Shown: one piece after another, positions 6,831-62,171 of the stretch
Layout: every line of letters begins with the position of its first letter
How positions within the stretch are numbered: position 1 is the stretch's first letter
Assembly: GCA_022827625.1 (NCBI GenBank)
Contig: JAJEIE010000024.1
Span: 40,227-104,226, forward strand
Length of the DNA: 64,000 nucleotides
Direction: 5' to 3'
Source: Candidatus Poribacteria bacterium
GTDB taxonomy: Bacteria > Poribacteria > WGA-4E > WGA-3G
Program-made: the position numbers and the translations under genes
The notes under the pieces: generated by a model
What the model saw: only the letters and a program-made list of their open reading frames with translations
Databases searched by the model: none
Told to the model about the DNA's origin: nothing

Positions 6831-8042
6831 TTAATTTCGCGCCGTGCTGGCGTAAAATTCCGAGATACTTTCAACGCCGCGCAGCAGCATTTCATCACTC
6901 AAGTGAAACGCCTCGCGTATTTTCAGTTTTTGCTTATCTTCTATTGAAGCAAGCAACCGTTGATTTGGTACAACATGGACGGAGTCAGCCTTTTCTCGAA
7001 GTTCCTGCAGTCCCTGCTCTGCTTTTTCGGCACGGCGTTGCCCTTCAAAATTGAACGGACACGTCACAACGCCTACCGCTAAAGCCCCTTGCTCTTGAGC
7101 AAGAGAGGCAATCAGGGGTGCAGCGCCTCCGCCCGTTCCGCCACCCATACCGGCTACAACGAAAACGATGTCGGCATCGGCAACGACGTTATGGAGTTTC
7201 TCTCGATCCTCCTCGGCAGCCCTTTTGCCCATCTCTGGATCCGCTCCGGAATACCCCGGAGTGGTGTTAGCACCAATCAGCACGGGTGTTGCGTCATTGT
7301 GTTTGTCAAGTGCTTGCTGGTCTATATTCACTGCGTAAAATTCAATATCTGTCAAACCAGATTCAATCATCCATTTGACGGCGTTACCGCCCGCACTACC
7401 GACACCCACAACCTTGATTTTGGGGTGGAGACGCTTGGATTCTTCACGTTTAGATGACATAGTTCTCCCTCTTTCAGGTTCGACACCGAACGCCTTGCGT
7501 AGGAGTTCACGTGTCTGTCTTAACCGTGTTTTAACTGTACCTATCGCTAATCCGAGTTCAGCGTGGATCTCTTTGATACTCCACGATTCCAGATAGTATA
7601 GCACCGCGACACGTCGCACTTTATCTGGCAGGTGATGCACTGCTTCTTTTGCGTCTTCGAGGCGTTCGATTTCTCGAAAATATCCCACCGCGTCCTGATC
7701 AATGCGATGGGTTAGATCGGCATAACTGGACGGAATTTCGCCGCTTGCGTGGCGTGTGGGCGTATAGTACCGCTTACAAGCGTTGTCCGCAATGCGGTGC
7801 AACCAGCCACTAAAACTTTCGACGCGTCGGAGTTGGCTGATGTTTTCCCAGACGGCTCTCCAGATGTCCATAAGGATTTCTTCAGCGTCGCGGCGTTGTC
7901 TCGAATTTGCGATAACGACTTTCCAGATGCGAGGACTATAACGCGACATCAGTTCTGTAAATGCCAACTCATCACTTGCTTGGGCAAGCCGAATGAGTTC
8001 TTCATCTGTCAGATTAGTGTGCGTTAATAGATCGTATCGCAT
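6831..8042 (-). CDS. ECF sigma-70 factor fused to a C-terminal FtsZ N-terminal GTPase domain (tubulin/FtsZ GTP-binding domain only, no T7-loop domain)
   Basis: Residues 1-190 carry sigma70_r2 (FTELMSRYSPRIWKVV...WLHRIADNACKRY) and r4 (LPDKVRRVAVLYYLESWSIKEIHAELGLAIGTVKTRLRQTR). Residues ~207-403 read KIKVVGVGSAGGNAVKWMIESGLTDIEFYAVN...VVAGMGGGTGGGAAPLIASLA...VPNQRL, with the tubulin signature GGGTGGG. By eye this is ~2/3 identical to the GTPase domain of the resident ftsZ (46202..47506). It ends just before the T7 loop. Confidence 0.85.
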   Translation of the reverse strand: MRYDLLTHTNLTDEELIRLAQASDELAFTELMSRYSPRIWKVVIANSRQRRDAEEILMDIWRAVWENISQLRRVESFSGWLHRIADNACKRYYTPTRHASGEIPSSYADLTHRIDQDAVGYFREIERLEDAKEAVHHLPDKVRRVAVLYYLESWSIKEIHAELGLAIGTVKTRLRQTRELLRKAFGVEPERGRTMSSKREESKRLHPKIKVVGVGSAGGNAVKWMIESGLTDIEFYAVNIDQQALDKHNDATPVLIGANTTPGYSGADPEMGKRAAEEDREKLHNVVADADIVFVVAGMGGGTGGGAAPLIASLAQEQGALAVGVVTCPFNFEGQRRAEKAEQGLQELREKADSVHVVPNQRLLASIEDKQKLKIREAFHLSDEMLLRGVESISEFYASTARN

Positions 8043-17967: not shown

Positions 17968-17992
17968 GTAGGAGGGATTTCCAAATCCCGAC
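17968..17992. repeat. Palindrome-containing repeat gtaggagggatttccaaatcccgac, copy 1 of 3 (about 55 nt upstream of the ADH start)
   Basis: Exact 25-mer also at 56417..56441; the copy at 56472..56496 has 1 mismatch; contains inverted arms GGGATTT/AAATCCC. Confidence 0.8.
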
Positions 17993-25044: not shown

Positions 25045-25411
25045 GCTTGAGTTGAGTAGATGATCGCGTTCCGAATGTAGCTTACAATCGGAATGAGGAA
25101 AGTCCGGACTCCGTAGGGCAGGATGCTGGGTAACCCCCAGGAGCGGCGACGCTATGGAAAGTGCAACAGAGAGTAGACTACAACGCCTACTTTTAAAGTT
25201 GAGCGTTGTACAGGTGAAACGGTGCGGTAAAAGCGCACCAGTCCATAAGGTGACTTATGGTGCTTGGTAAACCCCATCTGGAGCAAGGTAAATGTGGGAT
25301 TTATAGAGGTGTGCCCGCCTCGTCCCCAGGTAACCGCTTGAGGTGGATGGCAACATCCATCCCAGATGAATGATCATCACATACAGAATCCGGCTTATTC
25401 TCAACTCAAGC
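25045..25411 (+). ncRNA. rnpB: RNase P RNA, bacterial type A
   Basis: P4 halves GAGGAAAGTCCGGACTCC and ACAGAATCCGGCTTA; conserved GGTGAAACGGTGCGGTAAAAGCGCACCAG block; P1 pairing gcttgagttgag/ctcaactcaagc at the ends; T-run follows. Confidence 0.9.
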
Positions 25412-27010
25412 TTTTTTAACGATTGTGTCTGGGCGGTGTTTCCGTAAAAAACCACCACCCCCCGGTGTCTCAATGCGAATAACATCGCCTTCCTCCATAG
25501 AAACAGAGGCTTTACCGGCTAACTGATGTTCTTTTTTTCCAGAAATTAACACATTACGCCCAGGCTTTCCTTGTTCTCCACCTTGTAAGCCGTAGGGACC
25601 GCGTGTCCGTCGTTCCGAAAGGATCGTGGCCTCCGCGTCTGTTAGTATCCGTAATGCTCGAACAACACCGGCACCACCCCGAAATTTACCTTTACCCCCC
25701 GTTCCGCGACGGATTGCATATTCTACGACTTGCATCGGATAGTTCGTCTCGATCGCTTCTATAGGCGTATTCATCGTATTCGTCATGTGTGTATGGATCG
25801 CATCAATTCCGTCGCTGTTCGGACGCGCACCCATGCCACCCGCAATCGTTTCGTAGTAGGTAAATTCCTTTCCGCGTGAAGCGTCATAACCGCCTATTGT
25901 GAGATTGTTCATCGTACCGGAACTCGCCGCAGGAATCTCGTCCGGACAGGCTTGTGACAACGCACCAAGTAGTACGTCAACAATACGCTGTGATGTTTCA
26001 ACGTTTCCACCGGCGACCGCTGCTGGAAATGTTGCGTTCACAACGCTGCCTTCTGGCGCAATGACCTGAATCGGCTCTAAACACCCTGCATTCGCAGGCA
26101 CATCCGCACCCGCAAGGCAGCGGAAGGTGTAAAAGACCGCCGAGAGGGTGATAGCGTAAATCGCATTGACAGAGCCTCGGACTTGCGGAGCAGTCCCAGT
26201 AAAATCGACGACTGCCGTATCACCTTTAATTTCGATCGCGACGCGGATTTCGATCGGTTCATCCGTGATGCCGTCGTTATCCAAGACATCAGCGTATACG
26301 TAGCGTCCATCGGGAATTTCCCGTAAACGCGCACGTACCATGCGACTCGCATACCCACGCAACTCTTCCATATAGGCAGCAATCTCTGTTGTCCCATACT
26401 TCGTTACCATCTCTTGTAAACGGCGTTCACCGACGCGATTCGCAGCCACTTGTGCCTCTATGTCGCCACGACGCTCTTCTGGGGTGCGTACGTTAGCGAG
26501 TATGAGTTCCCAGAGATCCGTGTTCAACGCACCGCCTCGGACGAGTTTGACAGGTGGAATACGGATGCCTTCCTGAATGACACTCGTTGCAATCGGCATT
26601 GAGCCAGGGCTCATGCCGCCAACATCTGCGTGATGTGCGCGATTGGCAACAAAGAATGCCGGTTGGTTTTTTCCCTGCTGTTCTTTCTTATCTGGAAAGA
26701 CAGGCGCGACCAGTGTAATGTCCGGCAGGTGCGTGCCGCCGCGATATGGATCATTGAGCGCAATCATATCGCCGGGTACCATCTCGGTATGCGCAATCGC
26801 AGCGAGCACCGACAACGGCATAGAACCGAGATGCACTGGAATATGTGCGGCTTGTGCCACCATTTTGCCGGTGTCGTCAAACACAGCACAAGAAAAATCA
26901 AGACGTTCTTTAATGTTAGGGGAAAATGCTGTGCGTCGGAGCGTTACACCCATCTCCTCCGCAACCGAGGTTAGCATGTTTTTGTAAAGTTCTAATTTGA
27001 TAGGATCCAT
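25406..27010 (-). CDS. Hydantoinase B / 5-oxoprolinase family protein (HyuB-like); no hyuA partner is adjacent
   Basis: N-terminus [21 protein letters not shown], with conserved HyuB blocks throughout its 534 aa. Confidence 0.85.
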
Positions 27011-53234: not shown

Positions 53235-54209
53235 TCACAAATCAACAAGCCAATTGGATAAAGATGCAACTTGATCAGGATTTGTCAAGTTCGCCGCGTT
53301 TTCCAATGTCCTATCTTCAAGTTGGTTCCAGATTTCCGCTGCCATGCTGTCAACAATAACGGCTCCTATGAAAAAGAGATCTGGCGATAGATTGTGACTG
53401 GCAAAAGCGGTTCTGATGCGCGTCAACGCAGTTTGAGCAGTCTTCCAATGTTCATCTGCGCCTGCCGGATCAATTCCGCCTTTCAGTTCTCCGAAGGCGA
53501 TAAATTTCTCAGGCATCCTATAAGTTTCACGGTTTACTTCGTTTGGTGGGCAACGGAGTAGACAAATATCTATATTTTTTTGCACAAGCGGTATTGTTCG
53601 ATTGTAAATCAGTGTGCGTGTTTCCTTATTTTTTTCCCAGCTAAGCCCCTTGAGACTCAATTCTATATCTGCAGTATTACTTGTTCCCTTAATCCATGTG
53701 TTACTCGCAGCGTTAAGCCACTGATAAGAGGTTTCGGTTAGCGTCAGGGTAGAAACGATTGATCGGGTGAGTTTTCTTTCTGCCAATTTACCTGCCATAT
53801 TTCGCATTGAACCGCCGAGTGAATCCCCGCGTGTCAGCAGAAAACGATAAACCAATTCCTCAACAAAGTTCGTGCCTGCCGGTTCTAAAAATTTCTCTAT
53901 GAAATCTTGAATTGCGCCCGTTTGATCTTTCTCTGTAGTCTGCTTGGTTGCTTTCTCCGAAAATCCCGATGCGGTTAGTAAAGCAGTCCGTATGCCTTCT
54001 ATTTCGAGCAGCGCGTTAGGACGTTTTGCACGCGTAGCTGAAACTTTCAATGCGCGTGCTTGTTCAACAAAGGGGGTTGCACGACGACTCCTTTCCAAAG
54101 CCAATGCCACAAAACCTGCACGAATTTCTTCAGGAGCGGTTATAAGATCTGCGCCAGCGGATAAATGTTGGAGATATGGCATCATCTTTTTCTCCAAACG
54201 TATACGCAT
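53235..54209 (-). CDS. Putative type II restriction endonuclease (cognate of the upstream methyltransferase)
   Basis: Co-oriented with the MTase and overlapping its 3' end by 28 nt; no other recognisable family motif. Confidence 0.4.
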   Translation of the reverse strand: MRIRLEKKMMPYLQHLSAGADLITAPEEIRAGFVALALERSRRATPFVEQARALKVSATRAKRPNALLEIEGIRTALLTASGFSEKATKQTTEKDQTGAIQDFIEKFLEPAGTNFVEELVYRFLLTRGDSLGGSMRNMAGKLAERKLTRSIVSTLTLTETSYQWLNAASNTWIKGTSNTADIELSLKGLSWEKNKETRTLIYNRTIPLVQKNIDICLLRCPPNEVNRETYRMPEKFIAFGELKGGIDPAGADEHWKTAQTALTRIRTAFASHNLSPDLFFIGAVIVDSMAAEIWNQLEDRTLENAANLTNPDQVASLSNWLVDL

Positions 54210-55612
54210 TTCCGAAGCGGCACACGCCCGTATGCCCCCATCTGTTGACTGCTATTCCCTTTTTTCCCGGGCACAATAAGAATATTTTCCACCTCGAAAC
54301 CCAATGTTTGTGCGATGTCAGATAGAATCATATCTACAGATATGCTCACACCGGCGTAACGCACGTTGTCATTAACCATAAAGAGGCGCGCATTTGGCTT
54401 TAGAACACGGGCACACTCACCGATAACACACGCCATTTCGGAGAAATACCCACGAACCATCCTCGGAATGCCGCCGTTATTTAACGTGCCAGATGCTTTT
54501 TCATGTTCAAGGTAGGTACATATTGTTTGTAGTAATTTTTGTTGATTAGCTGCTTCTATAAAGGGAGTCCACTGCGGACATATTTTTAATAAATCTTTTT
54601 CTCGATTTTCCACAGTGCAACTAAGCATCTCTTGCCGCAGCCTTAAAACTTCCGCTTGTGTCAAATCCAACATAGCGAGTTCAAGCGCGTAGGTCCGGGT
54701 GTAATCGTAACGGTTGCAATAAGGGGGTGAAGTTACGATCGCACCATAAGAGGCTTTTTCAAGGGTAGGAAGGATTTCGAGACATGAGCCTTTGAATAAA
54801 CGAATATCCGCCGCGATCTGTTTGACAGGGAAAAGTGTTGCGGGTCGTTCAGCGTCACGCACATCTGATAAAATTTCTTTAAGTTTGGCGGTTATCGCTG
54901 TATCAAAATCAAGGATTTTTCCTTTATTGAAAGCCTTGGTCCCCGGCCGTCGTTTGCCTGACCGGGCATCCCAGCGCAAATACTGCCCATCTTTTCGTGT
55001 ATAGCTAATATCTTCTAAGATGCACAAGAGTGCCAAACGTAAGATAGCTTGAGCGTTCTCATTCTCTTGTTGGATGGCACTTCTGTATCTTTCGATCGCT
55101 TCTACTGTTTCTGGTGGATAAGCGTTCTCTGTGATCCGGATGGTACTGAATGGAAGTCTTTCTGAGCATGCCTTCCAAGGAAGGGAGGTTATCCAACGCT
55201 CGATTGTGCTGGTGTCCTCTGCTGTCAGTTTTCTTTTTGATAAGAGACGGGCGCGGATAATTTCCTGACCGATCGGTAGTAATTCTATACCATCGGCGGG
55301 AATTCCTTGGGAACTTGCCGCAAACAGAGTTGTCCCTATTCCGGCAAATGGATCAAGCACCTTTCCCGATATGCGTTCTTTGTAGCTGCCGAGAAAATAT
55401 TCAACAAGTCCTGCTGAAAAGGCTTCCTTGTATTTGTACCAACCGTAAGCGGGTTTGTCTTTATTTCCTTGAAAACTCACGGTTTTTCGGGACAAAAACA
55501 AGGCTGTCGAGAATTGTAATTTGAAGTTCTCAGCGAGTTCAGCATCGAGTGCTGCGATTTTATCGCGGAGTTTGTTAGTTTCTGGCTGGGTTTTATTTTT
55601 CTCAGATGTCAT
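54182..55612 (-). CDS. DNA amino-methyltransferase (N4-cytosine/N6-adenine; motif order I then IV)
   Basis: Motif I DPFAGIGTT and motif IV SPPY (IVTSPPYCNRYDY). The start is chosen at the internal ATG 55612 (MTSEKNK...) because the longer frame would overlap the convergent epimerase gene. Confidence 0.75.
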   Translation of the reverse strand: MTSEKNKTQPETNKLRDKIAALDAELAENFKLQFSTALFLSRKTVSFQGNKDKPAYGWYKYKEAFSAGLVEYFLGSYKERISGKVLDPFAGIGTTLFAASSQGIPADGIELLPIGQEIIRARLLSKRKLTAEDTSTIERWITSLPWKACSERLPFSTIRITENAYPPETVEAIERYRSAIQQENENAQAILRLALLCILEDISYTRKDGQYLRWDARSGKRRPGTKAFNKGKILDFDTAITAKLKEILSDVRDAERPATLFPVKQIAADIRLFKGSCLEILPTLEKASYGAIVTSPPYCNRYDYTRTYALELAMLDLTQAEVLRLRQEMLSCTVENREKDLLKICPQWTPFIEAANQQKLLQTICTYLEHEKASGTLNNGGIPRMVRGYFSEMACVIGECARVLKPNARLFMVNDNVRYAGVSISVDMILSDIAQTLGFEVENILIVPGKKGNSSQQMGAYGRVPLRKCVYVWRKR

Positions 55613-55619
55613 AAGTCTT

Positions 55620-56384
55620 TTATTCTTCCCCATCCGGAATCTCCGGCCAATTATGTTCCGGTGAATACCCCAACGCCTCTTTTCCTGGGTGCCATGCAAA
55701 ACGAGAATCCGCACGTCCCGCAACGGCGTTATAAGCACCGTACTTAACCGTCTCCGTCTCAATCGCACACGCAACACATTGTGCAACATCCCTCGGATCG
55801 ACATAAACAAACCAAGGTGCCGTCACAACGTCAGGCACCGTCGGACCCGGATTCTGTCCATCACCCGCAATCACACCCGGACGGACGTGGATGACGTCCA
55901 ACCCGTGTGCCTGATGATACGCCGCACCGATCTGCTCACCAAGATACTTCGACAGCGAATAGTAGAGATCCCCCGGACCAAACACAAAATCATCATCGAC
56001 GTGGTATGGCAGTTTGGCATCGGGTGCAGGGTGACACGCCGAAATACTCGAAATGTTCACCAATTTTTGCACACCTTGTTGCACACAGGCTTCCGCTACG
56101 TTCCACGTGCCTTTCACCATAACGTCCGCAAAGAGCGAAGCAGGTTTGCCTGACCGTCCCCGCACCAAAGCGACGAGATGCACAACAGCATCCTGACCGG
56201 CACACGCCGCTTCGACTTCAGAGGGGTTTGTTACGTCTGCTTTGATAAAAGTTGTGTTGGGAAATGAACCCTCGGGTGCAACGATGTCGGTTAGCGTGAG
56301 TTGGTAGGCGTCCTGCAACCGATCAATAATAAATCGCGCCAAGTATCCACTTGCACCCGTAATCAGAATCTTTTCAATAGGCAT
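55620..56384 (-). CDS. NAD-dependent epimerase/dehydratase (extended SDR)
   Basis: ILITGASGYLARFIIDRL Rossmann motif. Confidence 0.8.
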   Translation of the reverse strand: MPIEKILITGASGYLARFIIDRLQDAYQLTLTDIVAPEGSFPNTTFIKADVTNPSEVEAACAGQDAVVHLVALVRGRSGKPASLFADVMVKGTWNVAEACVQQGVQKLVNISSISACHPAPDAKLPYHVDDDFVFGPGDLYYSLSKYLGEQIGAAYHQAHGLDVIHVRPGVIAGDGQNPGPTVPDVVTAPWFVYVDPRDVAQCVACAIETETVKYGAYNAVAGRADSRFAWHPGKEALGYSPEHNWPEIPDGEE

Positions 56385-56400
56385 CAGTGTCTATCCTATG

Positions 56401-56510
56401 GTTCTTTATTTTTTCTGTAGGAGGGATTTCCAAATCCCGACTTCTTATACATCTGGTTCTTTATTTTTTCTGTAGGAGGGATTTCCGAATCCCGACTTCT
56501 TATACATCTG
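56401..56510. repeat. Tandem duplication, 2 x 55 bp, each unit containing the gtaggagggatttccaaatcccgac element; upstream of the epimerase gene
   Basis: Units 56401-56455 and 56456-56510 differ at one position. Confidence 0.9.
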
Positions 56511-56546
56511 GATGCCTGAACTTGTTCAGGAAAAGTATTTGAACCT

Positions 56547-56888
56547 CTAAACAAAAGGAGCTTCCGTCTCATAGAGCGCAGCGTTATAGCCGACAAGAAA
56601 GACATCCCCGCTCCTGACCGTAGGCGCACGGAGACTTCCGCTGCGTCCCAGCACCACCTTTAGGATCGCTTCTTGCGTGTCTTCAGTCGGCACAAAGGTT
56701 TCAACGCGCCGCCCTTTCGCAACAACGATACGTTCCGCACCGCCCATTAATTCCCATACCGCCCCTGCCTCCATTTTCTCTTTTCGAGCATCCGTACGGC
56801 TTTCCGCTTGTAAGTTGTGTGTGTCAAGTAACTCTTGCACTTTTTTACACGAGTTTCAGCCATTCCGAAAATAAATCCAATCTATCAT
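56547..56888 (-). CDS. ArsC/Spx/YffB-family thioredoxin-fold protein with in-frame TGA (candidate selenocysteine) at the CxxC catalytic position
   Basis: AAGGAG SD 8 nt upstream of the ATG at 56888. Translation MIDWIYFRNG-U-NSCKKVQELLDTHNLQAE...LRAPTVRSGDVFLVGYNAALYE aligns with YffB/Spx ([24 protein letters not shown]...IKRPLL...LLGF), with the TGA (56856-56858) exactly replacing the first Cys. A bulged hairpin with a GU-containing loop starts about 15 nt after the TGA. Confidence 0.55.
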
Positions 56889-56919
56889 CACAATTTCTCC
56901 TTACTTTGACATCTCTTGT

Positions 56920-56942: not shown

Positions 56943-57060
56943 TATTCTGCCCACAATTTTTTTGGATGCCCCAACTTGTTGGGGACGCGAGACAGTGAAA
57001 CACTCCCGAACAAGTTCGGGCATCCGGACATGGGGTATTACGGGTCCTGAATACCTTTAG

Positions 57061-59219: not shown

Positions 59220-62171
59220 CTAAAGTTCTGGGAGCCTATAAACACCCCGGCGAACCTTTACAATTTCACCGGTGTTTACAAGGCGGGTGAGTTCTGTATT
59301 TATTGCTTTCGGATGTCCTTGAATACGCGCCGCGAATTCCGGTGTTCTTTTTTCGCCATCAGCGAGAAGTGCGAGAATTTGCTCGCGGAACGGAACACGT
59401 GCGATTTTCCCACCCCTCAGTTTTCGCAACACTCGGTTCGCCTGCCTTGGGGAGCATCCGAGAACCGCCTCGACCTCTTTTCTGCTGGATTCAGGTGTGA
59501 GAGTGTCGCGTTCGGTCTCAAAGCGTTGGCGTGTCGCTATGACCTCGGAAAGTTTGTCTAACCCACCGGCGACATCGAAATCTTCCCAGTCAAAAAGAAG
59601 GGTTTCCGGTCTATCGGTGATCTCAGGAATTCGCAAGCCTGTAATCCACATAATTTTCTTGTTGGTTTCCAAACGGTGTAGCTGCGCCAGCCCTGTCATC
59701 CGTGTGAACATATCGGTGACCTCTTTTTCATAAACGCTTTGGACGCGTGCGTCTTTGTAACGGTAGGATTCAGGCTCCATTTCATAAGAGAGGGGTTTCT
59801 CGTCGTTTCCGAACAAGATCCGAGTGCGCTTCAAAATGGCGCGGGGCCCTATTTCCGGCAAGCCAACTATCCAGATAACCTGTGCCTCTTGAAAAGCGAT
59901 TTCCAATCCCGCCTCCCTCCGAAAACCCATCAGGAAACAGACGTTCTCATTTTTCGCGATATTGTTCAGCTGTTCAGTTGCGTGATCATAGGTGATAATC
60001 CCATGCTTAATATTCGGATCCCTTTCAATTTCGGTTTGGATCCTCCAGAAAATGCGCTTTCCAGTTTCAGATATCCCGAGAACGTCCCAGGTGTTGTCGA
60101 GTTCTAAAATTGCTTCCATTGGATAAATACCCGTACGCATCTGAAAAACACGGTTTCCGGGAACCCACGCCCGCGGTTCGGTGTCAAGGATCTCGGTTTT
60201 CTCATCCAAGAAGGCTTGATGTAGATGTCTGCCTTGGAGCGTCGCGGAAGGGACCAATAGGTATCTGACGCTCGAATGGAGGACCGGCGGCATCCAAAAC
60301 TGTAGCACTTCGTCCTCCCATTGCATCGGAGCATCAGCGTTTCGCGTGTAATGCGCGAAGAAACGCTTGAGTTGATGCCAAACTGTCCAGTTTGGATTTC
60401 CACGGACCGTCTGGGACATCTGTTCGATGATTTCTGCTTCCAGCCATTCAAACGTCTGTACCGCCATTCTGAGACGTTTGATGAAGTCGACATGGGATTT
60501 GTTTCTAATTTCTACTGCATTCAGCAGAAATGTGGCAAATTTTCCTAAGGCACCGCCTTGCCAGTCGGCAACCCACGCCTTCAATGTGGTTTTTGAGAGT
60601 TCGTATTCAAGAAACAGTTGATTCTCTCTTCTGGCACTGATGAGACAAAGCCGCTGTGTTTCATCGCCCCCTTCGAGAAGTTGTTCGGCTATTTTTGCGT
60701 ATTGTGGGTCCAAGAACAGACGACGATCTTCTAATATTTGTGCATTTCCCACATTTCGGTTTTGAAGCAGTTGTGCTGCCGCTGCCGCCAGCGCATCATT
60801 TGGAACGTTTAAACAGATGGCGCCATCATTACGCAGAACGGATTCTACTTCCGGGTCCTGTTCTGCGTCTGGCTGTGTAATAAATCCAAGAACGCGTGCG
60901 TTCCTATCAAAAGCGCGCTGTACCTGCGTGCTAATTGCTTCGCTGGTCTCATGCATCTTTTCTGTAGGGTCGGACTTCTGTAACACCGGTGGCGGACGTT
61001 TTATGCCCAGCGGACTGAGTTTCCCTTCCCGAATGGCAAGCACCTTAGCGTCTATCGGCAGCCCCGTCGCGGGGACCGGCGGTAGGATACCTGTATCGTT
61101 CCAAACATCTGTTATGAGCGTTGCCGCCGTCGGCAGTCCCGTGTCATCTGTCGTGGCACGTATCCACACACCCTCCTCGTTCTCCCACAATGATACCTCT
61201 ATATCGCCGATCGCCGCCCCTTGCCGCTTCCAATAGTGAAGTCCATCCGCTTGTCTGACGTAAGAAAATCCGCGCTTGAAAAACGCCTCTTTGGCAAGGT
61301 CAAGTTTAGCCGATCCGAGAGAGTAGGGTGCCTCGGGAATGCTCTCCTTACGTCGTTTGCTTTGGAGCACAGGTTCGTGGAGTTTCGCGCGAAGCGCGTC
61401 AAGAGGCGCAAAGAGTACCTCTTTAGCAATTACAGGTGGCTCTAACAGATTTCCGAGCAGAATTTCATAGCGCGCATCCCAGCAATTGTGTCCTTTTTCG
61501 CCAAAAATTTCGAGATACGCCTCGTGTTGGTCGGGATTCTCTGCGGTCGGTGTGCCTTTACAGACGTACAACCGTGCCTGCTGGGTGTCTGGGTGCAGGT
61601 ACCCCGGTATCCGACAAGAAAAGCGGAGCCCACCCGACTTTGACAGCGTCAACAACGGATTCGCAACTGCGCCAACAAGTGCTTGAACACAAGCAAGCAC
61701 GGCATCAGGGGCGGTACAGAGTGCTTCATACTTAAAATCGATGTCATGCCATGATGCCCCATCGCGTGCCGATGGCAGACCCGTATACAGATGAATTCCC
61801 CAAGACTTGTGCCATCGGATGGCACTCCAGTCTATTGCCTCTTGGCGTTTCAAAAACCGCTCACCCCCAAAAGAGCGCGGGGGACGGTCGGTTTCAGGGG
61901 CACGCCCTATCGGCATAAAGGAAATACCCACCGCCTCCAAGTCTTGAAGTGCGACAGGGTATCCGTGGGCACAGTAGACTGTGAAATGGTATGGAAGCCC
62001 TTTGTAAAGCCGAGGCGTTATGGTCGTCTTCCGTTGTTTAAGTGGGTTCGCGCGCCGTTCGTGGCAGCGGGCGATTATATCTTGAAAGAGATTGGTTGTC
62101 ATTGGCATCACAATCAGGCGATTTTTTATCCTTGGACGGAATAAATTTCGGCGCGTCTGTGGCAAACTCAC
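59220..62171 (-). CDS. 983-aa protein with a C-terminal AbiEi-like winged-helix DNA-binding domain; N-terminal region with DxD-containing blocks of uncertain (possibly primase-polymerase-like) nature
   Basis: The C-terminus ...FREQILALLADGEKRTPEFAARIQGHPKAINTELTRLVNTGEIVKVRRGVYRLPEL matches the LxRLxxxGxLxRxxRGxYxL wHTH pattern. The N-terminus has WHDIDFK and SKSGGLRFSCRIPG blocks. No P-loop was found. Confidence 0.6.
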   Translation of the reverse strand: MSLPQTRRNLFRPRIKNRLIVMPMTTNLFQDIIARCHERRANPLKQRKTTITPRLYKGLPYHFTVYCAHGYPVALQDLEAVGISFMPIGRAPETDRPPRSFGGERFLKRQEAIDWSAIRWHKSWGIHLYTGLPSARDGASWHDIDFKYEALCTAPDAVLACVQALVGAVANPLLTLSKSGGLRFSCRIPGYLHPDTQQARLYVCKGTPTAENPDQHEAYLEIFGEKGHNCWDARYEILLGNLLEPPVIAKEVLFAPLDALRAKLHEPVLQSKRRKESIPEAPYSLGSAKLDLAKEAFFKRGFSYVRQADGLHYWKRQGAAIGDIEVSLWENEEGVWIRATTDDTGLPTAATLITDVWNDTGILPPVPATGLPIDAKVLAIREGKLSPLGIKRPPPVLQKSDPTEKMHETSEAISTQVQRAFDRNARVLGFITQPDAEQDPEVESVLRNDGAICLNVPNDALAAAAAQLLQNRNVGNAQILEDRRLFLDPQYAKIAEQLLEGGDETQRLCLISARRENQLFLEYELSKTTLKAWVADWQGGALGKFATFLLNAVEIRNKSHVDFIKRLRMAVQTFEWLEAEIIEQMSQTVRGNPNWTVWHQLKRFFAHYTRNADAPMQWEDEVLQFWMPPVLHSSVRYLLVPSATLQGRHLHQAFLDEKTEILDTEPRAWVPGNRVFQMRTGIYPMEAILELDNTWDVLGISETGKRIFWRIQTEIERDPNIKHGIITYDHATEQLNNIAKNENVCFLMGFRREAGLEIAFQEAQVIWIVGLPEIGPRAILKRTRILFGNDEKPLSYEMEPESYRYKDARVQSVYEKEVTDMFTRMTGLAQLHRLETNKKIMWITGLRIPEITDRPETLLFDWEDFDVAGGLDKLSEVIATRQRFETERDTLTPESSRKEVEAVLGCSPRQANRVLRKLRGGKIARVPFREQILALLADGEKRTPEFAARIQGHPKAINTELTRLVNTGEIVKVRRGVYRLPEL

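Follow-up and report, generated by a model that had tools for sequence, protein, structure and literature searches.

Does an in-frame TGA codon interrupt a short gene in a 64,000-nucleotide stretch of Candidatus Poribacteria DNA (contig JAJEIE010000024.1; this whole stretch is hereafter called the window), or does it encode selenocysteine (Sec) in a protein that gene callers cut short? The question arises at positions 56547 to 56888 on the minus strand, where the initial annotation had proposed an ArsC/Spx-family selenoprotein with UGA in place of its catalytic cysteine. We found that this UGA is very likely recoded as Sec, through the elongation factor SelB and a selenocysteine insertion sequence (SECIS), in a 113-residue thioredoxin-fold protein that belongs to the NCBIfam family NF041106. 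Five lines of evidence bear out the proposed recoding: the NF041106 match, a conserved TGA with constraint on its flanks, homologues with Cys at the same position, fold matches and covariation in the SECIS-like hairpin.

An in-frame UGA in a truncated gene model

The gene and its parts read as follows.

56547–56888, minus strand: predicted selenoprotein coding sequence (CDS), NF041106 member, 113 codons with Sec at codon 11, plus a TAG stop
56897–56902, minus strand: Shine-Dalgarno (SD) motif AAGGAG, exactly 8 nt 5' of the ATG at 56888–56886 by direct reading
56856–56858, minus strand: in-frame UGA, predicted Sec codon for residue 11, first position of U-N-S-C
56847–56858, minus strand: predicted redox motif U-N-S-C, codons 11–14
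56547–56840, minus strand: artefactual 97-amino-acid (aa) open reading frame (ORF) that gene callers start at a GTG, a truncation of the 113-codon CDS
56622–56648, minus strand: family signature G-R-S-G-S-L-R-A-P, residues 81–89

The CDS opens with ATG ATA GAT TGG ATT TAT TTT CGG AAT GGC TGA AAC TCG TGT AAA AAA GTG, so that a single TGA lies in frame between the ATG and the called GTG start, and the frame from 56888 to 56547 translates as MIDWIYFRNG*NSCKKVQELLDTHNLQAESR...APFV before it reaches TAG at 56549–56547. The 97-aa GTG ORF, the lone TGA at 56858–56856, the ATG at 56888 and the SD motif 8 nt upstream of it all lie where the initial annotation had put them. Motifs of the GGAGG/AAGGA type occupy the equivalent place in orthologues, and the G+C content of the window is 47.9%. 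We propose that 56888–56547 is one gene, whose product would carry Sec11-x-x-Cys14 at the start of helix alpha1. The relatives in the protein database number in the hundreds, and almost all of them are N-terminally truncated models of 94–99 aa; the identical 97-aa fragment is found on contigs of Candidatus Poribacteria metagenome-assembled genomes (MAGs) from sponge metagenomes (e.g. GCA_022824825.1, contig JAJDZC010000008.1).

Profile searches against Pfam and NCBIfam were run with U replaced by C. The product matched NF041106.1 (ArsC_rel_Se_1, 'ArsC family (seleno)protein') with 120.8 bits against a cutoff of 85 (E 3.6e-35), over residues 2–106 and profile positions 1–107 of 107. The family is defined by an N-terminal U/C-x-x-C motif that opens with Sec or Cys, which the product has as U11-N-S-C14. 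In our family alignment (A1), Cys14 is invariant and column 12 holds U or C; the columns G82, G85, L87, R88, A89 and P90 are invariant as well, and the motifs D-A-R-K and G-x-S-G-x-L-R-A-P are kept throughout the family.

When each species was represented by a single genome, a scan recovered the gene from 68 Poribacteria and from one MAG of the Desulfobacterales. The full-length orthologues from these 69 genomes all carry TGA in the identical column, and all share an SD-like motif and ten conserved residues at the N terminus; the sister genomes therefore keep the TGA, as the initial annotation anticipated for a true selenoprotein. Scanning Joint Genome Institute (JGI) metagenomes with the family alignment yielded 80 diverse loci, 42–68% identical to a distant member, and TGA is present in 80 out of 80. 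The column is thus kept in all 149 other loci (69 from genomes and 80 from metagenomes), some of them on complete chromosomes from long reads. If only one MAG had this in-frame stop, it might be put down to faulty sequencing or assembly of a gene with a Cys codon (TGC or TGT), or to a pseudogene, and the window holds no sel genes. Yet the same TGA recurs in those 149 independently assembled loci, the residues on both sides of it are kept while their codons vary synonymously, and a conserved hairpin follows downstream, so that we give an error or a pseudogene virtually no credence.

The synonymous variation was seen in a codon comparison of 69 distinct Poribacteria CDS. In codons 2–10 the residues are kept and the codons change synonymously (Ile5 as ATC, ATT or ATA; Arg8 as CGG, CGA, AGG or AGA; Asn9 as AAT or AAC), and the same holds for codons 12–16, where Ser13 is written in four codons and Cys14 as TGT or TGC. 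Judged by these codon patterns, both flanks of the UGA are under purifying selection as one continuous reading frame, which argues against a pseudogene and also against two separate units, a leader peptide and an ORF that starts at the GTG. According to the latter explanation, TGA would be a true stop that ends a 10-codon leader ORF, and a 97-aa protein would start at GTG 56840; it agrees with the gene callers, and GTG is a legal start. Against it, N-S-C-K-K between the TGA and the GTG is conserved as protein, with synonymous variation and the invariant Cys14. No start codon is conserved at GTG 56840, because the non-Poribacteria homologues have GCN (Ala) there; the homologues with Cys form continuous ORFs across the site, and no SD motif precedes the GTG. 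In the structure model, moreover, a product starting at V17 would be left without strand beta1 (residues 2–7), the redox motif and the start of alpha1. We consider a leader ORF with a separate 97-aa protein highly improbable.

Homologues with Cys occur at exactly this column. Two of them (P0137 and P0142) have C-V-T-C at the UGA column, with the codons TGT and TGC. When 1.84 billion cluster representatives were searched exhaustively with a profile, 342 clusters were obtained at E <= 1e-10, and motif matching on the best 150 of these 342 (representatives at 50% identity) found 31 with Cys, 8 with 'W' (genetic code 4) and 109 without the N-terminal motif, the last as would be expected if their gene models were cut at the UGA. 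Because the CxxC of P0137, P0142 and the cluster representatives falls at the UGA column, the correspondence of U and C, which the initial annotation had proposed to check against Cys homologues, is confirmed.

The 'W' representatives raise the question of whether the whole genome reads TGA as sense (code 4 or 25), with Trp or Gly as residue 11, and several database entries indeed have W at the site (e.g. P0028 and P0037). Translation of these entries under code 11 does not give the stored protein, and the DNA reads TGA at that position, so the W reflects the choice of a gene caller on short contigs. TGA also ends 10 out of 42 long ORFs in the window, which makes it an ordinary stop in this organism, as well as 4 out of 70 orthologues of the selenoprotein gene itself, and the site is aligned with the redox Cys of homologues. 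A genome-wide sense TGA is accordingly an extremely remote prospect.

In total, the family entries stored with Trp at the Sec position are P0028, P0037, P0123–P0131, P0133 and P0141 (loci L007 and L008). They come from short contigs that were apparently translated with a TGA=Trp code, a systematic mis-annotation; P0028 and P0037 are full-length. The remaining value of the finding is for annotation: correcting the gene model would give the true 113-aa product and remove the false active-site Trp of these code-4 entries, and it would bring back what the models of about 97 aa lack here and in most public entries, namely the Sec codon, the redox motif and strand beta1.

A conserved hairpin downstream of the UGA

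Bacterial Sec insertion involves an RNA hairpin in the coding sequence shortly after the UGA, as in E. coli fdhF, and the initial annotation had pointed to a candidate.

56821–56840, minus strand: SECIS-like hairpin GUGCAAG-AGUUA-CUUG(A)CAC, beginning 15 nt after the UGA

The hairpin lies inside codons V17–T23, in helix alpha1. Its apical loop spans 56829–56833, with the loop G at 56832, and the loop lies about 22 nt from the UGA, within the 16–37 nt that the 2005 bSECISearch consensus of Zhang and Gladyshev is said to allow. We aligned the 45 nt from the UGA without gaps in 121 distinct sequences and tested two structures against 500 shuffles. For the hairpin in question (columns 19–26 paired with 30–37), the inner five pairs are standard in 83–100% of the 121 sequences, and compensatory changes include A-U to C-G or G-C at 26/30 and U-A to C-G at 21/35, among others. 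Its covariation exceeded that of all 500 shuffles on four out of five measures. In Poribacteria the hairpin has a bulged A and varies little, with 94% of cells paired. In the 71 non-Poribacteria sequences, seven out of eight pairs in columns 19–37 show double-sided changes, and the covariation (0.255, against a shuffled mean of 0.160) was reached by none of 500 shuffles and beats every slid register. The three-base core of the loop reads GUU, GGU, GGC, UGU or the like, and in 120 out of 121 sequences its first or second base is a G, consistent with the bacterial rule that the apical loop carries G in one of its first two places (PMC13582414).

Constraint on the codons points the same way. The hairpin codons CAA, GAG, TTT, CTT and GAC are fixed in every CDS that encodes the respective residue (38–69 of 69), CTT being frozen although Leu is six-fold degenerate, and ACA is used in 63 out of 64 CDS. 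Normalised synonymous diversity in the 69 Poribacteria CDS is 0.068 in the hairpin versus 0.50 upstream and 0.72 downstream. In the two genes with Cys, only 5 and 3 out of 8 pairs remain in register, and one loop is without a G. Since synonymous sites are frozen and pairing is degraded in the Cys forms, the comparison of sequences supports a conserved RNA hairpin that goes with the UGA, in the way a SECIS would.

The window sequence offers a second fold of equal stability that contains the UGA itself (columns 2–31, GAAACUC.UGCA-AAAAAG-UGCA.GAGUUUC), and this could be the functional RNA instead. In the window, as in many orthologues, it comes out as the minimum-free-energy (MFE) or centroid fold, with pairing in 78% of its cells. 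Its covariation, however, was matched by 144–464 of 500 shuffles in the 121 sequences and by 438–496 of 500 in the 71 non-Poribacteria sequences; the loop AAAAAG breaks the rule of a G at position 1 or 2, and the fold excludes the covarying hairpin. We rejected this candidate, which pairs well and does not covary beyond shuffles, and regard it as a very unlikely functional structure. An extended lower stem of the covarying hairpin (columns 9–12 with 39–42, part of the MFE fold of the window) was also rejected, as 130–319 of 500 shuffles matched it.

Compared with other bacterial SECIS elements, the hairpin identified here has a short stem in Poribacteria (4–5 bp, the bulged A and 3 bp), whereas other lineages of the family reach up to 8 continuous bp. 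The family loop has only 3–5 nt, and a lower stem is without support. The gene may thus provide an example of a compact SECIS embedded in a segment that encodes a conserved helix.

It is important to point out the observations that speak against Sec recoding. Taken alone, the hairpin of the window looks like chance: it folds with -7.5 kcal/mol (z = -0.81), 46 out of 200 shuffles fold as well, and an A26/A30 mismatch leaves a stem of only 4+3 bp. One orthologue (L019), the only exception among the 121 sequences, has the loop UUU without a G. Searches with E. coli SelA, SelB and SelD (tblastn) found no selA, selB or selD homologue in the 64-kb window or in 77 loci, ARAGORN found no tRNA gene in the window or in 60 related loci, and we saw no second selenoprotein gene in the window. 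Outside Poribacteria, no neighbour of the gene recurs except a 342-aa downstream ORF in 13 loci, and with no neighbour recurring across phyla the gene shows no operon logic. Finally, we found no report in the literature of experimental selenium incorporation for any NF041106 family member.

The hairpin described in the initial annotation is consequently present at 56840–56821 and covaries in relatives, and it is weak when judged from this sequence alone. In the deviating orthologue (L019:3031–3075), GAU UUA stands for GAG UUN and gives an AUUUA/UUU apical loop, which may stem from sequencing or be a variant that a SECIS tolerates. The Rfam scan of the window gave no match at the selenoprotein gene. 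The stretch of about 8.5 kb that adjoins the low-coordinate end of the window contains an ATP synthase operon and no sel gene or tRNA, and a scan of the window for in-frame TGA with motifs of the C/S/T-x-x-U type returned 64 candidates, all of which, apart from the known site, look like off-frame noise.

Evidence for Sec machinery comes from related genomes. Slaby et al. 2017 (PMC5649159, Table S4) counted SelA/SelB/SelD in Candidatus Poribacteria as 2/1/1 for WGA-3G, 2/1/1 for bin70 and 4/1/2 for bin44, and one of our loci with a TGA-containing orthologue (L030) is from WGA-3G. In addition, Sec-containing group 4 hydrogenases were reported in Poribacteria in a 2026 study (PMC13582414). We infer that SelB and Sec are also used in the genome studied here, and the gene would add a well-supported selenoprotein to the Poribacteria, in line with earlier reports of SelA/SelB enrichment in sponge symbionts.

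A related possibility is that the UGA is recoded through SECIS and SelB and that a tRNA(ReC)-type tRNA inserts Cys, or that termination dominates and leaves little full-length product. Such SECIS-dependent recoding of UGA has been described in some bacteria, according to work cited in PMC13582414. On the other hand, Poribacteria are reported to have SelA and SelD, which are needed solely for Sec synthesis, and all 68 species have strictly kept UGA in place of TGY, which speaks for selection on Sec itself. The chance that Cys is inserted, or that little full-length protein is made, therefore appears slim.

For Sec recoding, the standard bacterial route can be outlined. SelB-GTP carrying Sec-tRNA(Sec) would bind the short mRNA hairpin that begins 15 nt 3' of the UGA, with its G in the apical loop, a hairpin that would be encoded within the K-K-V-Q-E-L-L-D-T codons. 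The SelB complex would then most likely deliver Sec to the ribosome at UGA 56858–56856.

Relation to Spx, YffB and ArsC

A PDB profile search with the family profile found Spx (3l78 and 1z3e), YffB (1rw1) and an ArsC-like protein (2m46) at E values of about 2e-4 over the whole length. The predicted structure is closest to solved structures of ArsC, Spx and YffB and has a thioredoxin/glutaredoxin-like fold. In the profile alignment, U lies on Cys10 of the Spx C-x-x-C, with the query C-x-S-C (U-x-S-C in the gene) on C-T-S-C of Spx, and the R-x-P of the family signature is aligned with the LLRRP loop of Spx and the IKRP loop of YffB. The similarity to Spx, YffB and ArsC-related proteins, in profile as well as in fold, corroborates that U takes the place of the first Cys of the CxxC segment.

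Spx of Bacillus subtilis (1z3e, 3gfk and 3l78) gave the best matches in both Foldseek and the PDB profile search, with C10-x-x-C13 on U11-x-x-C14 and LLRRP on LRAP. However, the TM-scores are only 0.5–0.58, and the curated Spx/MgsR cutoffs lie far above the scores of the window protein for both TIGR01617 (14.4 versus 75.05 bits) and NF009885 (15.6 versus 152). YffB (E. coli b2471; P. aeruginosa PA3664, 1rw1) and the ArsC-related 3gkx are only weakly similar in sequence; an hhalign alignment with E. coli YffB covers the full length at E 0.0058 and 21% identity. The YffB sequences that we compared (b2471 and 1rw1) have a single Cys at the U position and no CxxC, and the function of YffB is itself uncertain. 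The glutaredoxin-coupled ArsC (E. coli / R773) shares the thioredoxin-like fold and has its nucleophile Cys12 at the equivalent N-terminal position, but hhalign to E. coli ArsC aligned residues 6–27 only (22 residues, E 0.17, U on Cys12), Arg60, Arg94 and Arg107 were not alignable, and the window gene has no ars operon context. Pfam matches were below threshold throughout, with 17.2 bits for Glutaredoxin and 13.7 bits for PF03960 (ArsC) against a gathering score of 24. As the protein falls below the Pfam ArsC and Spx/TIGR01617 thresholds, it is neither an arsenate reductase nor Spx proper by curated thresholds; within the ArsC/Spx/YffB superfamily it is a distant relative. The assignment to the ArsC/Spx family in the initial annotation holds at this superfamily level and fails at the family thresholds. 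Similarly, the proposed site of the catalytic Cys is supported by alignment, and a catalytic role would follow from its position.

By analogy with CxxC and UxxC proteins of the thioredoxin fold, the protein probably cycles between selenol/thiol and selenenylsulfide and in doing so reduces a substrate. We infer this redox chemistry from U-x-x-C at the start of alpha1, the invariant Cys14, the motifs D-A-R-K and G-x-S-G-x-L-R-A-P, and the homologues with CxxC. A more far-reaching idea is that the gene encodes a functionally distinct, phylum-wide selenium-dependent redox protein with an activity unlike that of characterised ArsC, Spx and YffB. This is suggested by the Sec form in 68 out of 68 Poribacteria genomes, by the usual oxidoreductase neighbours and by a beta-hairpin at residues 53–65, which in the structure model (where strand beta1 comprises residues 2–7) lies between beta2 and the C-terminal half. 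In solved ArsC and Spx structures the corresponding region is all-helical. We consider a distinct activity doubtful; if real, the protein might work as a redox switch based on a selenenylsulfide, for example, or as a reductase dedicated to a substrate relevant to symbiosis.

The kind of gene is already known. An 'ArsC-like' selenoprotein in Desulfotalea and a 'distant ArsC homolog' in Desulfuromonas were described in a 2006 survey (Zhang et al. 2006, PMC1794560), the Global Ocean Sampling (GOS) selenoproteome of 2008 included 'Arsenate reductase 2, cd03032, UxxC' among its entries, counting 42 sequences with Sec and 238 with Cys (Zhang and Gladyshev, PMC2398784), and 'Arsenate reductase-like protein, COG1393, UxxC' appears in a review from 2022 (PMC9312934). 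The remark in the initial annotation that ArsC-like selenoproteins have been reported in prokaryotic surveys is accordingly borne out by publications of 2006–2008. These published proteins, from Deltaproteobacteria and marine metagenomes, have the same UxxC in an ArsC/Spx-like thioredoxin fold and likewise have Cys homologues; judged by motif and family, they would correspond to NF041106. Poribacteria are absent from the mentions of the ArsC-like selenoprotein family in these three papers (PMC1794560, PMC2398784 and PMC9312934). In NCBI nr, Poribacteria orthologues already carry the NF041106 name (e.g. MDE0555016.1), and members with Sec and with Cys both occur. We see no difference of substance between the window gene and this family; the NCBI models from Poribacteria have 97 aa, without the Sec codon and the first 16 residues. 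The expectation that standard annotation would miss the gene is therefore correct for the truncated models and incorrect for the name. Because the family is already curated and named in public databases, the locus is a correct identification of a known kind of gene and not a discovery, and with a curated NCBI model, a literature dating from 2006–2008 and orthologues already named, it holds little new biology.

Neighbourhood and other features of the window

In Poribacteria, a GFO/IDH/MocA oxidoreductase lies upstream of the gene in 61 out of 69 loci and an NAD-dependent epimerase downstream in 60 out of 69. The 342-aa downstream ORF of the 13 loci outside Poribacteria resembles ArgC by eye.

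The gene is surrounded by repeats. Directly 3' of it, at 56399–56511, a 55-nt unit occurs 2.05 times in tandem with 98% identity, and each unit carries the palindrome GGGATTTCC(A/G)AATCCC, which recurs at 17974–17989. Within 2 mismatches this palindrome has 7 matches, against 0.09 expected. A second palindrome, GGATGCC-YSAAC-WW-GTTSRGG, which resembles repetitive extragenic palindromic (REP) elements, is present in three exact copies around the selenoprotein gene (0.06 expected):

56510–56530, plus strand: REP-like palindromic element
56964–56984, plus strand: REP-like palindromic element
57005–57025, minus strand: REP-like palindromic element

Two of the copies form a 25-nt inverted repeat across the selenoprotein gene. 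The element might act as a terminator, an mRNA stabiliser or a mobile repeat.

Farther away, a gene for a BsobI-family restriction endonuclease (471 bits) adjoins an N6/N4 DNA methyltransferase gene at 53235–55810 on the minus strand. The BsobI-type pair is also found in one related locus (L003) and is absent from two otherwise syntenic ones (L001 and L002), and it looks like a strain-variable restriction-modification island. At 59220–62171 (minus strand), a 983-aa ORF that is kept upstream of the locus in related MAGs has as its sole match a C-terminal DNA-binding domain of the AbiEi_4 type (residues 955–981). The only Rfam match in the window is an RNase P RNA:

25048–25412, plus strand: RNase P RNA class A, Rfam RF00010, 292.5 bits

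Lastly, a 403-aa ORF at 6831–8042 (minus strand) fuses a sigma-70 factor of the extracytoplasmic function (ECF) type (Sigma70_r2 at residues 31–93 and r4 at 131–183) to a GTPase domain of the FtsZ/tubulin type (PF00091, residues 208–366, 140 bits). This unusual combination is likewise encoded as a single gene, again of 403 aa, in two more Poribacteria MAGs (L164 and L165).

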